Origin: an uncultured Candidatus Rokubacteria bacterium
GTDB taxonomy: Bacteria; Methylomirabilota; Methylomirabilia; Rokubacteriales; CSP1-6
Direction: 5' to 3'
Assembly (NCBI GenBank): GCA_963840495.1
Contig: CAWIZN010000013.1
Coordinates: 47,110-111,109, forward strand
DNA: 64,000 bases
The position numbers were made by a program, and so were the translations under genes. Each line of letters opens with the position of its first letter. The stretch's first letter is position 1. Shown one piece after another: positions 3,371 through 32,269 of this stretch. The notes below the pieces were generated by a model. It was not told where the DNA came from, did not search any database, and saw nothing but the letters and a program-made list of their open reading frames with translations.

Positions 3371-5320
<1,950 letters not shown>

Positions 5321-5324
<4 letters not shown>

Positions 5325-5635
5325 CGGACTCCGGCCGCTTCATCCCCGAGGCCGATGACGCCGACCTGCGGCGCGAGAAAGCGCGCGCCCGCGAGCTGCG
5401 GCAGAGCGCCTGGTGGAAGCGGCGCATCGCCGCAGGGATCTGCCACTATTGCCGCCGCGCCGTGGGAATCCGGGCATTGACGCTCGATCACGTCGTTCCC
5501 CTCATTCGCGGCGGCCGGTCCGTGCGGGGGAACATGGTCGCATCCTGCAAGGACTGCAACTCGAAGAAGCAATCGCTGCTGCCGTGGGAGTGGGACGCCT
5601 ACCTCACCGCGCGCGCGCCCTCCGAGGCCGACTGA
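5321..5635 (+). CDS. Small HNH endonuclease
   Basis: CHYC..LTLDHVVPLIRGGRSVRGNMVASCKDCNSKK; GTGA overlap with the ABC-F stop. Confidence 0.88.
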
Positions 5636-5816
5636 CGAAGCACCGGCTTGGCTGCTGACGAGCGCCCCATTCGCGGGCGCCGTCGTATCTTCGCGAATAC
5701 AGGGCACTGTCTCCAACTGTGGGCATTGTGCCGGGAGCGTCGGCGCGGTGAAATCGTCCTCATCGAAGCTCCAATCTCTCACGGAGGCTCCACTCTCACG
5801 AAGGAGGACGAGCGAC

Positions 5817-6158
5817 ATGCAGGCGATGCGATGGATCGGCATAGCGGTGTTGGGGGCAGGGTGTCTCTGTGGCGGCGCGGCGATGGCAGCAGAGGACAAG
5901 CCGACGAAGGCGAATCAGCGAGCGGAGGCCAAGGGCGAAGCGCCGGATGCCAAGGGTGATGTCAAGGTCAACATCAATGCCGCGTCGAAGGCGGATCTGA
6001 TGAAGCTCGACGGTATTGGCGCCGGGGCGGCGCAGAAGATCATCGCCTACCGCCAGGCCAATGGCCCGTTCAAGCGGCCGCAGGATCTCGCCAAGGTCGA
6101 CGGGCTGGCCGCCAAGGGCGTGGTCGAGAAGAATGCCGGCCGGATCACCGTGAAGTGA
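5817..6158 (+). CDS. comEA: ComEA-like helix-hairpin-helix DNA-binding protein with signal peptide
   Basis: VNINAASKADLMKLDGIGAGAAQKIIAYRQANGPFK; AAGGAGG RBS. Confidence 0.85.
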   Translation: MQAMRWIGIAVLGAGCLCGGAAMAAEDKPTKANQRAEAKGEAPDAKGDVKVNINAASKADLMKLDGIGAGAAQKIIAYRQANGPFKRPQDLAKVDGLAAKGVVEKNAGRITVK

Positions 6159-6170
6159 GAATCATCTTGC

Positions 6171-6199
6171 TTTGCTCAGCCGGATCTCTGTAGTAGCAT
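6171..6199 (+). promoter_or_regulatory. Putative sigma70 promoter for the downstream structured RNA
   Basis: TTGCTC (6172-6177), 16-nt spacer, TAGCAT (6194-6199); the first stem starts about 10 nt downstream. Confidence 0.5.
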
Positions 6200-6366
6200 G
6201 ATCGCAAATCGGTCAGAGCGCACACAGGCTCTCTGGGCGTTCTCTCCGGCAATTCCGCCGGAGACAACGTGACCGAGCCTCGGGTCGGGAGTCGGCGTCC
6301 GATCCAAGGTTGCGGGTTTCTGGGCCGCTTTTCGGGCCGCGCCGAGAAAGGGAGGTGATCCAGCCG

Positions 6367-6408
6367 ATGTGTACCCCTACGGTGAGCTGTGAGGTGGTCA
6401 CCTCCTAG
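6367..6408 (+). CDS. Possible 13-aa micro-ORF MCTPTVSCEVVTS
   Basis: Perfect SD GGAGGTGAT 7 nt upstream of the ATG; TAG at 6406-6408. Confidence 0.35.
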   Translation: MCTPTVSCEVVTS

Positions 6409-6458
6409 GCCCAGACACACGCAGTCGTAGGTGGCCCTGGAGGGTCCAGGAACCACCG

Positions 6459-6536
6459 GCCCCGACGGTCCCGCCCTTCTCACCAGCGGGGCGGCACGGC
6501 AGAAGCTGCCGCAGGCACCGTCGGGGCTATTTTTTT
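6459..6536 (+). terminator. Intrinsic terminator-like branched hairpin
   Basis: 11-bp GCCCCGACGGT/ACCGTCGGGGC closing stem with two internal hairpins, followed by TATTTTTTT. Confidence 0.7.
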
Positions 6537-6567
6537 GCCCGGCTGGCGGGGGTTCCCGCGATGCGGG

Positions 6568-6611
6568 AAAACAAAAACGCGCCGCCGAGGACGGATGTCC
6601 TCGCGGCGCGT
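6568..6611 (-). terminator. cspA intrinsic terminator
   Basis: ACGCGCCGC(C)GAGGAC/GTCCTCGCGGCGCGT stem with U-tract on the minus strand. Confidence 0.75.
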
Positions 6612-6685
6612 GACCGCTGGCACTCGAGCCGGTGTCAAGCCGGGTCCCGGCGGAACCGGGACCCGGCCGCTGATAGGTCGGCTGC

Positions 6686-6886
6686 CTACGCCTTGCGGAC
6701 GTTGGCGGCTTGGAGCCCCTTGGGCCCCTTGGTGACCTCGAACTCGACCCGGTCGCCCTCCGCCAGGCTCTTGAAGCCCTGAGCCTGGATGGCGCTGAAA
6801 TGCACGAACACGTCCTCGCCATTTTCCTGGGAAATGAAGCCGTACCCCTTCGCATCGTTGAACCACTTCACGCTGCCCTGAGCCAT
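6686..6886 (-). CDS. cspA: Cold-shock protein
   Basis: [13 protein letters not shown] (RNP1), VFVHFSAI (RNP2); AAAGAGGT RBS. Confidence 0.97.
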
Positions 6887-6969
6887 CTGTATCGACCTCT
6901 TTCTTTTGAGGCCTGCGCCTCAGTGATGCCCCGCCACCATGGCGGGGGCGTCCTTCGGGAGTGAAGGAC

Positions 6970-7007
6970 AAAGAAAAACGCCGCGGGACCTTGAGGTCCT
7001 CGCGGCG
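6970..7007 (-). terminator. Terminator-like hairpin within the cspA 5' leader (attenuator candidate)
   Basis: Minus strand CGCCGCGAGGACC-TCAA-GGTCCCGCGGCG then TTTTTCTTT. Confidence 0.6.

Positions 7008-32184: not shown

Positions 32185-32269
<85 letters not shown>

Follow-up and report, generated by a model that had tools for sequence, protein, structure and literature searches.

The window analysed here, a 64,000-nt stretch of DNA from an uncultured Candidatus Rokubacteria bacterium, carries at positions 6206-6536 of the plus strand a unit of approximately 330 nt that is almost certainly a real, stand-alone structured RNA. The surrounding genes, assigned by Pfam, encode an ABC-F type ATPase, an HNH domain, a ComEA-like HHH_3 domain and, on the opposite strand, a cold-shock domain protein. 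The last of these, cspA (6686-6886), is the next gene and has its own terminator-like hairpin. The order comEA, RNA, cspA is kept in most order-level loci. The features of the locus, all on the plus strand, are the following.

6172-6177, plus strand: -35-like hexamer TTGCTC, read from the sequence
6194-6199, plus strand: -10-like hexamer TAGCAT, read from the sequence
6206, plus strand: probable 5′ end of the RNA, an A, 7 nt past the -10 box, where two RNA-library contigs start
6209-6276, plus strand: 5′ three-way junction domain of the minimum free energy (MFE) fold, closed by TCGGTCA/TGACCGA
6277-6310, plus strand: hairpin of the MFE fold (helix 5) with the conserved loop GAGUCGGC
6311-6326, plus strand: 5′ strand of a long stem around the Shine-Dalgarno (SD) and ORF module in the MFE fold, with its partner at 6408-6423
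6351-6366, plus strand: extended SD sequence GGAGGUGAUCCAGCCG, exactly complementary over 16 nt to the 3′ end of the genome's own 16S rRNA
6367-6408, plus strand: mini-ORF running from ATG to TAG, 13 codons plus stop, MCTPTVSCEVVTS, marked by conservation of its stop and frame
6374-6382, plus strand: second 16S-complementary block CCCCUACGG, 9 nt, complementary to the 5′ strand of the last 16S hairpin
6388-6397, plus strand: UGUGAGGUGG with the invariant GAGGUG (6391-6396), preceded by a strand whose partner in Actinobacteria is a 5′ segment
6398-6406, plus strand: ORF 3′ end UCACCUCCU, which pairs with the SD (6350-6358) in the MFE fold and resembles the 16S tail
6430-6457, plus strand: hairpin GGUGG...CCACC of the MFE fold, with helices 9 and 10 invariant
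6458-6536, plus strand: branched intrinsic terminator of the MFE fold, an outer stem with two inner hairpins, followed by a T-tract (6530-6536)

The boundaries of the RNA can be read from both ends of the locus. The two promoter-like hexamers are spaced by 16 nt in the window. A TAnnnT box occupies the same place in 30/30 order-level homologues (as TAGGAT, TACGAT, TAGCAT or TAACAT), and TTG or TGG is found at the matching distance, about 17 nt upstream, in 25/30; a generic sigma-70 promoter scan of the window did not list the TTGCTC/TAGCAT pair. The alignment of these 30 homologues (A1) includes one row, L023, from the unpublished genome G022, which enters all counts based on it (consensus and covariation, ACAG loop, 16S complement, stems in MFE folds, promoter and T-tail). 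Contigs X4 and X7, from the RNA libraries of two studies, both start at 6206, each after 23 loose A residues; contigs cannot prove an RNA end, and these starts are a weak hint that 6206 is the 5′ terminus. At the other end, the 12-bp outer stem of the terminator (6458-6469 with 6517-6528) encloses the branched region 6458-6528, and this helix (helix 11) has 4 compensatory pairs among its 12 in the 30-homologue alignment, for example 312:384 with GC in 19 and AU in 11 sequences. A T-rich tail is scored in 29/30 homologues, the failing row being the window itself, whose T7 reads directly in the sequence. Contigs from the RNA libraries of four metatranscriptome runs, belonging to four studies, cover positions of about 6184-6550 and give neither expression levels nor exact RNA ends. 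No RNA contig lies on the comEA part (5700-6139) or on 6580-6623, which is not evidence of absent transcripts there. More broadly, at least half of the sampled words occur in each of 19 runs, which come from 13 studies and include 10 that are on record as RNA.

The sequence folds far better than expected from its composition, at -178.7 kcal/mol versus -144.9 ± 6.0 for shuffled sequences (z = -5.63), with 0/100 shuffles as good. The minus strand also folds well (z = -5.02), so the fold alone gives no strand, and the assignment to the plus strand follows from the promoter, the T-tract and the ORF. An RNAalifold consensus of the 30 homologues contains 89 pairs with 97.7% of cells paired, and 22 of the pairs show compensatory changes; 0/500 shuffles reach this number (mean 8.0), and slid controls have at most 8 such pairs with 36-46% paired. 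This compensatory support sits in the 5′ domain, the second hairpin and the terminator. Helices 1-4 of the 5′ domain contribute 13 pairs with compensatory changes (17:87, for instance, is CG in 15 and UA in 13 sequences), and helix 5 contributes 4 of its 12 pairs and is 97.5% paired. The 5′ domain, whose first hairpin (6215-6232) carries the conserved loop ACACAG (6222-6227), is common to loci labelled Methylomirabilota, Binatia and Thermodesulfobacteriota and absent in Actinobacteria, the phylum labels of contigs from metagenome-assembled genomes (MAGs) being partly doubtful.

The helices around the ORF are conserved in another manner. The enclosing stem has at least 6 bp in the individual MFE folds of 24/30 homologues, with differing sequences, and has no column count because MAFFT left it unaligned. 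Pairing of the SD with the ORF 3′ end (helix 7) is found in the MFE folds of 25/30 homologues and is 98.6% paired, with one-sided changes only. The core helices lack compensatory support because they are invariant, and in the window's clade neither they nor the switch proposed below is therefore backed by covariation. For the local hairpin at 6430-6457, a single compensatory case was seen by eye, in locus L108. By analogy with an actinobacterial helix described below, its 3′ strand ACCACC (6452-6457) could alternatively pair with the ORF GGUGGU (6393-6398); the two are pairable in the window, but both are invariant and ACCACC also closes the local hairpin. Similarly, and again by analogy, the loop nucleotides ACAG (6224-6227) are a candidate pseudoknot partner of the CUGU preceding GAGGUG, as they are pairable in 30/30 homologues, which is consistent with such a contact and carries no covariation, the 3′ strand never varying. 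A preliminary description made from the letters of this DNA had anticipated much of this architecture. The promoter-like TTGCTC-N16-TAGCAT is present at 6172-6199 and conserved in homologues, the 5′ domain closed by TCGGTCA/TGACCGA is a covariation-supported three-way junction, and the hairpin placed at about 6278-6309 is the covarying helix 5 at 6277-6310. The long stem around the core, the hairpin at 6430-6457 and the branched terminator with its T-tract all appear in the MFE fold, the terminator stem with 12 instead of 11 bp. The compensatory changes and the metatranscriptome contigs both favor a structured, transcribed RNA.

The most conserved part of the RNA is organized around contact with the 16S rRNA 3′ end. 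A 38-nt local alignment to this end scores 47, versus a mean of 14.9 and a maximum of 25 for shuffles. The exact complement is 17 nt long in 17/30 homologues and 12-21 nt in the remaining 13. Across phyla GGAGGUG(A/G)UCC is kept, while complementarity that extends past GGAGGUGAUCC is a feature of the window's clade that Actinobacteria do not show. The preliminary description had recognized a 16S-complementary core and the lack of a long ORF, both of which hold; the complement is, however, the SD of a conserved 13-codon ORF (6367-6408), which had been overlooked, and not a free antisense segment.

GAGGUG is invariant in all locus sets compared, and a stop codon follows exactly three codons later in 30/30, 33/33, 10/10 and 116/118 loci of four sets (189/191 in total), the two departing loci being chance pattern matches. 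All three stop codons are used at this fixed position and TGG never: distinct sequences of the window's order have TAG in 19, TAA in 6 and TGA in 2 cases, and distinct actinobacterial sequences TAG in 20, TGA in 7 and TAA in 3. Every start position reads AUG or differs from it by a single base. Starts in distinct sequences of the window's order are ATG (20) or GTG (7), and TTG is also used in the family as a whole. At this place 6 of the 30 distinct actinobacterial sequences have only CTG or ATA, a feature that weakens the case for an obligatory ORF. ORF counts include L023, L172 (genome G083) and L182 (genome G113), the last being among the six sequences without a canonical start. Differences in ORF length are whole codons, with lengths of 13, 14 or 15 codons among the loci counted. 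The encoded peptide is far less constant. Most codons are conserved within the window's order, but across the family only the Glu-Val encoded by the GAGGUG hexamer is constant and codon 3 is hypervariable. The residue before GAGGUG may be Cys, Arg, Glu, Pro, Leu or His (with codons including UGU, CGU, CGC, GAA, CCU and CUC), since this position sits in a helix that covaries with a 5′ segment. With a variable peptide and a fixed stop and frame, it is the frame that is conserved and not the peptide. Conserved codons moreover keep their third bases (UGU and CCU in a GC-rich genome), which indicates selection on the RNA, and the peptide string CEVAAR was not found in the literature.

Taken together, the mini-ORF is probably translated. 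Conservation of the stop could be partly structural, as its nucleotides lie within or beside helices, although the complete absence of UGG argues against this. Ribosome-protected fragments map to homologues of the actinobacterial RNA Ms_IGR-5, introduced below, in two mycobacteria according to PMC4974804, and these footprints could also reflect binding of 30S or 70S particles without translation.

The RNA is present once in the genome, and nearly all relatives yield one match per genome. By BLAST it is found in 57/61 relatives and in 144/201 genomes sampled from the phylum (tallies that include the unpublished G008, G022, G288 and G327), as well as in 85/104 of the high-quality genomes in that sample; one further genome tally includes the unpublished G066, G083, G113 and G185. 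A search of the whole 64,000-nt window against Rfam returned nothing at gathering score except a tRNA at 32185-32266, and ARAGORN reports 0 tmRNA or tRNA genes at the locus. One tmRNA (166.9 bits), one RNase P RNA, one 6S RNA and one SRP RNA are each encoded elsewhere in the genome, all above cut-off, and these four identities can be rejected for the locus, in line with the lack of their signatures in the preliminary description.

The sole Rfam match of note at the locus, with E up to 10, is a full-length match to Ms_IGR-5 (RF02471) at 23.9 bits (E 0.002) in a search of 601 nt, below the gathering cut-off of 45 bits of this family; a search of the window's whole genome with RF02471 at E up to 1 gave no match. 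In two relatives with a window-type 5′ domain, RF02471 gives a single genome-wide match, at 39.2 bits (E 4e-7) and 34.7 bits (E 7e-6). The gathering score is passed by 0/13 non-actinobacterial loci and by 7/7 actinobacterial-type loci that were picked up through the shared motif pair. The order of the core elements (extended SD, short frame, GAGGUG, stop 9 nt later) is found at 6351-6408 of the window, in 33/33 loci of the Rfam model and in 30/30 order-level homologues. The window's host is not an actinobacterium, and records of the window type with the same synteny are MAGs that carry the label Candidatus Rokuibacteriota or Methylomirabilota. The window RNA and Ms_IGR-5 very probably belong to the same superfamily, and judged by sequence the window RNA is a distant, 5′-extended relative of Ms_IGR-5 with a sub-threshold match. 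Both RNAs are single copy with their own promoter, share the series GGAGGUG(A/G)UCC, start, approximately 6-8 codons, GAGGUG, three codons and stop, and place a segment containing CACC immediately ahead of a GC-rich terminator hairpin, the window aligning over the whole model. Unlike Ms_IGR-5, the window RNA carries about 140 nt of additional 5′ domain (three-way junction and hairpin), a long stem enclosing the core, an SD paired with the ORF 3′ end and a longer 16S complement of 16-17 nt, and host phylum and synteny differ. The proposal of an undescribed ncRNA class tied to ribosome control thus stands in its second half, the ribosome link being well founded on the 16S complement. The class is not entirely undescribed, given the distant relation to Ms_IGR-5, and the match to that known family lies itself below threshold.

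The passages of the literature that name Ms_IGR-5 report its expression in Streptomyces (PMC8079986, PMC8780764) and give no function. The small RNA scr4389 of Streptomyces coelicolor is at most a candidate for the same locus. PMC9094748, on translation in M. tuberculosis, and PMC13096801 do not mention the presumed flanking genes, and supplementary tables of ribosome profiling may list the ORF. A search for Rokubacteria together with noncoding RNA returned nothing relevant.

The neighbours offer little guidance to function. The cspA and ABC-F genes that the preliminary description took as a clue are indeed there, and synteny with csp is kept in the window's order. This arrangement is lineage-specific, however: the actinobacterial loci examined have no consistent partner gene and do not show the cspA/ABC-F link, their neighbours being what we take to be YgfZ-like, class IV aminotransferase-like, PdxH-like and citrate-synthase-like genes. 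The downstream ORF in a Mycobacterium is, like cspA, on the opposite strand. A leader-peptide transcription attenuator would need a regulated gene downstream on the same strand, whereas the next gene here is on the opposite one.

Comparison of the actinobacterial members revealed two covarying helices missing from the Rfam structure, which tie the 3′ half of the ORF to the 5′ end of the RNA and to the segment before the terminator. L172 and L182 were left out of alignments A2 and A3. In one, a 5′ segment of 4 nt upstream of the SD linker pairs with the 4 nt ending at the first G of GAGGUG (94.6% paired, compensatory changes in 3/4 pairs); the covariation score of the tested structure, this NNNG helix plus GUCC:GGAC, was reached by 0/500 shuffles. 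In the other, GGUG and the next 6 nt pair with the pre-terminator segment (90.3% paired, 6/10 pairs compensatory, 0/500 shuffles, 26-55% for slid controls). The Rfam model draws the pre-terminator segment without pairs, and 19 alignments to it show the same pairs. RNAduplex energies of the ORF segment against downstream sequence average -16.8 kcal/mol versus -14.6 kcal/mol for shuffled queries, a modest gain, so the argument for the helix rests on covariation and not on energy. Rfam draws a helix between GGUGGU of the SD and the nucleotides that follow GAGGUG, which is 86.5% paired and has one compensatory pair; it was set aside, and is mutually exclusive with the better-supported pairing of GGUG with the pre-terminator segment. 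In Actinobacteria a covarying stem encloses the SD and the start codon. A CGUG:CACG variant occurs in L182 only, and no claim depends on it.

The explanation that we favor brings these elements together as a translation-gated, ribosome-engaging riboregulator. As a whole, mechanism included, we put it slightly short of an even chance, and a translation-gated switch as the function is a tentative proposal that is somewhat more likely to be wrong than right. On this view the RNA at 6206-6536 is an abundant, independently transcribed, single-copy RNA, the Methylomirabilota/Rokubacteria type of a cross-phylum family that includes Ms_IGR-5. The family core consists of a maximal SD, GGAGGUG(A/G)UCC, a start codon 4-6 nt later, a frame of 12-15 codons, GAGGUG and a stop 9 nt after it. 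The 3′ half of the ORF is base-paired, in Actinobacteria with the RNA 5′ end and the pre-terminator segment, and in the window with the SD itself or, alternatively, with the pre-terminator ACCACC. The perfect SD would capture a ribosome, translation of the mini-ORF would unzip the closing helices, and the ribosome would terminate where its anti-SD can re-pair with the internal GAGGUG. Through capture, unzipping and re-pairing, passing ribosomes would move the RNA from a closed to an open, ribosome-bound state and back, making it a translation-gated riboregulator or a sensor of free ribosomes. A bolder version, which we regard as speculative and rather unlikely, is a housekeeping RNA of several phyla at which ribosomes dock. 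Its two anti-16S hexamers and fixed-geometry mini-ORF would capture a ribosome, send it over 13 codons that serve as a test track and keep it at the stop; free ribosomes would in this way be sensed, buffered or proof-tested. Where the 16S complement has grown to 16-21 nt and gained a second block, as in the window's lineage, the RNA could also pair directly with 30S subunits that are still immature or stand idle, at their 3′ minor domain, and so regulate how they mature or hibernate.

There are other explanations for the same observations. The ORF might be a by-product in a purely non-coding RNA that pairs with the 16S 3′ end, either as a sponge or parking place for 30S subunits or as a factor for maturation or hibernation of the 3′ minor domain. 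The 16-nt complement with its 9-nt block (alignment score nearly twice the best shuffle), two invariant GAGGUG copies each able to pair with the anti-SD, the presence of the transcript in many RNA libraries, the actinobacterial CTG and ATA starts, and footprints that fit binding alone (PMC4974804) all agree with this reading. It leaves unexplained why a stop, in any of its three forms, follows GAGGUG at a fixed distance, why length changes by whole codons and why the start resembles AUG; the SD is moreover paired in cis in the fold, and the long complement is confined to the window's clade. We consider it unlikely. A sensor RNA akin to a riboswitch or a protein-bound translational operator, in which a ligand or protein recognized by the 5′ three-way junction or by the compact SD fold gates ribosome access with the mini-ORF as read-out, would account for the many invariant unpaired nucleotides in the junctions and loops of a 5′ domain with covariation-supported helices, and for the stem that encloses SD and start in Actinobacteria. 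As Actinobacteria lack the 5′ domain, the central function cannot lie there, Rfam contains no riboswitch that matches with E up to 10, and the gene that follows is on the opposite strand both in the window and in a Mycobacterium, leaving no downstream co-oriented gene to regulate, which together make such a sensor improbable.

The remaining explanations fare less well. If the 13-residue peptide were the product and the RNA structure tuned its expression, the strong SD, the conserved start, stop and frame, and the conserved codons of the window's order would follow naturally. Yet only Glu-Val is constant, codon 3 is hypervariable, third bases of conserved codons are unchanged as expected for selection on RNA, and about 290 of the 330 nt are non-coding and conserved nonetheless. 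A small-protein gene is thus quite improbable, and a functional peptide was dropped as the main reading because the residue before GAGGUG varies with the RNA helix. Very unlikely is a cis element, either a 3′ UTR processed from the comEA-like transcript or an attenuator with read-through antisense to cspA. It draws on the gene order of most order-level loci and on an RNA contig of one relative that joins the 3′ part of the RNA to the 3′ end of cspA, but a contig spanning two convergent genes does not show one transcript, the RNA has its own conserved promoter, and actinobacterial members have unrelated neighbours. Finally, the resemblance of the minus strand to the last 38 nt of 16S rRNA might suggest a non-functional relic of an rRNA operon end, or the locus might be a mobile repeat. 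The resemblance is confined to these 38 nt, promoter and terminator lie on the plus strand, and both the relic and a multicopy MITE, which the preliminary description had named as a possible refutation, are ruled out by the single copy, conservation in relatives and compensatory changes across the order and beyond, so that the chance of a non-functional locus is negligible.

Everything invariant in the RNA faces the ribosome, namely the maximal SD, a further hexamer that resembles an SD, and the framed mini-ORF whose stop lies at a fixed distance. Conservation of frame and pairings in place of peptide is unusual, and points to translation as a mechanical step in the function of the RNA. Ms_IGR-5 itself is already in Rfam, where it is treated as non-coding, and the two covarying helices found here correct its published consensus structure. 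An orphan sRNA known only from Actinobacteria thereby gains clear relatives in other phyla, and in Methylomirabilota/Rokubacteria it is near-universal among the genomes searched, a single-copy RNA alongside the tmRNA, RNase P, 6S and SRP RNAs.

Among known systems, rnTrpL/peTrpL of Sinorhizobium and SgrS/SgrT are translated sRNAs or released leader RNAs whose peptide or pairing seed has a known function in trans. Like the window RNA they combine translation with RNA function, through a short ORF in a small structured RNA with an intrinsic terminator, whereas their ORF is longer or tied to an amino-acid operon and the window peptide is not conserved. STAB-SD sequences, which need no start codon or ORF and protect downstream mRNA, and ribosome-binding 5′ stabilisers of Gram-positive mRNAs share with the RNA the principle of a perfect 16S 3′-end complement that holds a ribosome or 30S subunit in place, and the actinobacterial SD lies about 13 nt into the Rfam model, whose start presumably marks the RNA 5′ end; in contrast, the window SD is 145 nt from the 5′ end, belongs to a framed mini-ORF with a fixed stop and is followed by no gene that it could protect. 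Although the window RNA differs from tmRNA in lacking a tRNA-like domain (ARAGORN 0) and any Rfam family match, and in its canonical SD initiation, it resembles tmRNA in its similar size, its short internal ORF with a base-paired 3′ part, its RNA ends held together and its partner, the ribosome.

At the core of the RNA lies a Shine-Dalgarno site (SD), 6351-6366 (GGAGGUGAUCCAGCCG), which is the exact 16-nt complement of the genome's own 16S 3′ end. A local alignment to that end spans 38 nt, contains one bulge and a mismatched centre of 7 nt, and scores 47 (shuffles: mean 14.9, maximum 25); an exact 17-nt complement is found in 17 of 30 homologues from the same order. The preliminary description had recognized this 16S-complementary core and overlooked that an ATG at 6367 directly follows it, opening a 13-codon frame with a TAG stop at 6406-6408: MCTPTVSCEVVTS. 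In all 30 order-level loci the stop stands exactly three codons past an invariant GAGGUG. The 27 distinct sequences among them use TAG (19), TAA (6) or TGA (2) as stop and ATG (20) or GTG (7) as start, and their frames have 13, 14 or 15 codons (23, 1 and 3 sequences), so that insertions come in whole codons. Codon 3 varies freely within the order; the conserved codons hold their third bases fixed (UGU twice, CCU) despite the GC-rich genome.

The sole Rfam match at the locus is Ms_IGR-5 (RF02471), an actinobacterial sRNA. The match is full-length, which weakens the earlier proposal of an undescribed class, but its score is only 23.9 bits (cut-off 45; E 0.002 in a 601-nt search), leaving part of that proposal standing. 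A scan that took one genome from each species and looked for GGAGGTGRTCC, 18-42 nt and TGTGAGGTGG gave at least 120 loci. Among those listed, Actinomycetota form the majority (Mycobacterium, Streptomyces, Kitasatospora, Pseudonocardia, Brachybacterium and others), and the other labels are Rokuibacteriota/Methylomirabilota, Binatia, Thermodesulfobacteriota, Nitrospiria, Terriglobia and a few doubtful ones. When 20 loci were scanned at the gathering score, all seven of actinobacterial type were Ms_IGR-5 (61.8-167.6 bits) and none of the 13 of other types passed. In a Binatia-labelled and a Thermodesulfobacteriota-labelled genome, the single genome-wide match to RF02471 was an element with the window-type 5′ domain (39.2 bits, E 4e-7; 34.7 bits, E 7e-6). 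Of 151 evenly sampled Actinomycetota genomes, 44 gave a match at E <= 0.001 and 20 one above the cut-off, nearly always one per genome. Non-actinobacterial members have a 5′ domain with an ACACAG loop, whereas actinobacterial members begin about 13 nt before the SD. Judged from these sequence matches, the window RNA appears to belong to a wider family that spans other phyla and includes this known orphan sRNA. Ribosome-protected fragments have been reported on Ms_IGR-5 homologues in M. abscessus and M. smegmatis (PMC4974804), and expression in S. lividans and S. avermitilis (PMC8079986, PMC8780764); no function is assigned to it in these three papers.

It is the frame, not the peptide, that is conserved across the family. 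The Rfam model carries no knowledge of an ORF, and all 33 loci it located have the stop exactly three codons past GAGGUG (TAG 20, TGA 7, TAA 3 among 30 distinct sequences). Among the motif-scan matches listed, the same spacing holds in 116 of the 118 loci having both motifs, the two exceptions being chance matches inside long ORFs; two further loci lack the stricter motif and fall outside the 118. TGG was never seen at the stop position in the sets compared. Of the 30 distinct actinobacterial sequences, 24 have a canonical start and the other six have CTG or ATA at the usual place. The residues are highly variable: Glu-Val, which is the GAGGUG hexamer, is the sole constant, and the codon before it is UGU, CGU, CGC, GAA, CCU or CUC.

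Two helices not drawn in the curated RF02471 structure add to what is known of Ms_IGR-5. Helix (a) joins the tetranucleotide immediately 5′ of the A-rich linker and SD to the one whose last base is the first G of GAGGUG; the variants seen are CACA:UGUG, CACG:CGUG, CGCG:CGCG, CUUC:GAAG, CAGG:CCUG, CGAG:CUCG and CGGG:CUCG. In a MAFFT alignment of 48 actinobacterial sequences, 94.6% of its cells are paired (18-50% in slid controls) with compensatory changes in three of four pairs, and the covariation score of helix (a) tested together with a GUCC:GGAC helix was reached by 0 of 500 shuffles. In helix (b), GGUG and the next six ORF bases pair with the segment immediately 5′ of the terminator hairpin: 90.3% of cells are paired over 32 MAFFT-aligned sequences (slid controls 26-55%), compensatory changes occur in six of ten pairs, and again 0 of 500 shuffles score as high. 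In the curated structure, positions 1-13 and the pre-terminator segment are unpaired, though both lie in these covarying helices, and the helix (b) pairings are visible even in 19 alignments to the Rfam model itself. Helix (b) is incompatible with a helix drawn by Rfam, in which GGUGGU of the SD pairs with the bases that follow GAGGUG and which is 86.5% paired with one compensatory pair. Together, (a) and (b) place the 3′ half of the ORF, beginning at the codon that precedes GAGGUG and ending shortly before the stop, in an almost unbroken duplex whose opposite strand consists of the RNA's 5′ end plus the pre-terminator segment.

Features of the RNA and its surroundings (window coordinates)
5748-6158, comEA-like gene (Pfam HHH_3)
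6172-6177, plus strand, -35-like TTGCTC read in the sequence, 16 nt from the -10-like box
6194-6199, plus strand, -10-like TAGCAT read in the sequence
6209-6276, plus strand, three-way junction (MFE fold)
6277-6310, plus strand, hairpin (MFE fold)
6311-6326 with 6408-6423, plus strand, long stem (MFE fold)
6430-6457, plus strand, hairpin (MFE fold)
6458-6528, plus strand, branched terminator (MFE fold)
6530-6536, plus strand, T7 run read in the sequence
about 6565-6611, minus strand, terminator-like GC-rich hairpin and T-run of cspA
6686-6886, minus strand, cold-shock gene cspA (Pfam CSD), convergent with the RNA

The MFE fold of 6200-6536 reproduces the domains described earlier at -178.7 kcal/mol (dinucleotide shuffles -144.9 +/- 6.0; z -5.63; 0 of 100 as good). 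The reverse strand folds almost equally well (z -5.02), so the strand is assigned from promoter, T-tract and ORF. An RNAalifold consensus of 30 order-level sequences has 89 pairs with 97.7% of cells paired. Compensatory changes occur in 22 of them (shuffle mean 8.0; 0 of 500 reach 22), for example 17:87 CG15/UA13 and 312:384 GC19/AU11 (alignment columns), and are located in the three-way junction, second hairpin and terminator; slid structures give at most eight compensatory pairs and 36-46% pairing, a comparison that favours the consensus because it came from the same alignment. The core helices are invariant and therefore uninformative either way. The long enclosing stem, left unaligned by MAFFT, forms with differing sequences when the homologues are folded individually (24 of 30 MFE folds), and 25 of 30 pair the SD with the ORF 3′ end. 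The RNA structure is under selection, and the earlier view of a structured RNA linked to the ribosome is upheld by these changes and the 16-nt complement.

In the fold of the window RNA, SD bases 6350-6358 pair with 6398-6406 (UCACCUCCU), the last ORF codons, whose sequence is similar to the 16S tail, and CCA 6360-6362 pairs with UGG 6395-6397. The loop of the first hairpin contains an ACAG that can, in 30 of 30 homologues, base-pair with the CUGU ahead of GAGGUG, and the ORF's GGUGGU can pair with ACCACC 6452-6457, which otherwise closes a local hairpin. The strands of all four pairings are invariant in the clade. By eye, one Binatia-labelled sequence has a compensatory change favouring the local hairpin. 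With three GGUG-containing and several CACC strands, alternative folds are plausible.

The RNA has a maximal SD followed by a frame whose ends are conserved. A further invariant SD-like hexamer stands at a constant distance of 9 nt from the stop, and the ORF 3′ half pairs with distant parts of the RNA. A ribosome starting at the mini-ORF would have to unzip exactly the helices holding this half, and nothing more. With the last sense codon in the P site, GAGGUG would lie at about 8 nt, the spacing of an initiation complex, so that a terminating ribosome could hold the RNA through its anti-SD. On these two steps, the RNA may act as a switch gated by translation, or may sense free ribosomes.

The 16S complement also recalls a pure 16S-tail sponge or a 30S assembly factor, which we consider unlikely; a frame with conserved ends directly follows that complement. 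A ligand or protein sensor is less likely again. A peptide gene, for which there are an SD and a start, and residues that change freely, is improbable, and a cis element of comEA or cspA, with the shared synteny on one side and the RNA's own promoter-like boxes and T-tract on the other, slightly more so. A relic, given 22 compensatory pairs, is scarcely credible. The switch or sensor remains the preferred reading.

The 528-nt spacer separates the comEA-like stop from cspA, and the RNA features occupy its first 380 nt. The promoter-like TTGCTC-N16-TAGCAT noted previously has counterparts in the order: a -10-like TAnnnT box in 30 of 30 homologues and TTG or TGG near -35 in 25. A T-rich tail was scored in 29 of 30, the window's own T7 being read directly. 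The minus-strand hairpin and T-run belonging to cspA bring the number of terminators in the spacer to two, placed back to back. The order comEA, RNA, cspA (opposite strand) is retained in most of the 30. An ABC-F type ATPase gene (3585-5635 region; two ABC_tran domains, ABC_tran_Xtn and a C-terminal domain by Pfam) overlaps by 49 nt a small HNH endonuclease gene (5276-5635), and the pair precedes the comEA-like gene in many relatives. A 236-codon antisense frame (6145-6855, minus strand) crosses the RNA and, out of frame, cspA; it had no match in a Pfam search and most likely arose by chance in GC-rich DNA. The contig also carries RNase P RNA (contig positions 10098-10495, outside the window) and the genome's 16S rRNA gene 3′ end (122157-122202, about 11 kb past the window's end).

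Nineteen public runs from 13 studies each contain half or more of the 31-mers sampled from the RNA stretch; 10 of these runs are on record as RNA and come from soil, freshwater sediment and ice. Compared with 5700-7000, contigs from four RNA runs (four studies) cover about 6184-6550 plus the cspA gene; the RNA is present in RNA libraries, and the contigs give no expression levels or exact ends. Contigs from two studies start at 6206, an A 7 nt past the -10 box, each with 23 loose A in front, a weak hint that this is the 5′ end.

The RNA is not a multicopy MITE, the stretch being present once in the 4.83-Mb assembly (79.7% complete). By BLAST it occurs in 57 of 61 same-order relatives, nearly always singly. 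Even sampling of the phylum found it in 144 of 201 genomes and in 85 of the 104 of high quality; these tallies include a few unpublished genomes. Three families give 111/125, 14/16 and 14/15; two others give 0/18 and 1/15, where BLAST may simply miss it. Among named records, the element in this synteny is carried by MAGs that bear the label Candidatus Rokuibacteriota or Methylomirabilota. Labels are at odds with content at four loci (L103, L126, L128, L145): a contig of a 'Gammaproteobacteria' MAG has a Mycobacterium-type Ms_IGR-5 (165 bits), and contigs labelled Gemmatimonadales, Binatia and Candidatus Acidoferrum bear the window-type RNA with the window's synteny. Such contigs are probably mis-binned or mislabelled, which makes the list of phyla soft. 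In a MAG labelled Ornithinimicrobium, a below-threshold AdoCbl riboswitch match (39.6 bits, cut-off 50; locus L081:1798-1946) lies, on the other strand, about 150 nt from an Ms_IGR-5 homologue. Some members of a further family in the window's class (loci L207, L208, L105; split matches in genomes G229, G239, G258) have the RNA gene split immediately behind the mini-ORF stop: an unrelated insert of about 170-200 nt follows, beyond which the 3′ part of the RNA resumes.
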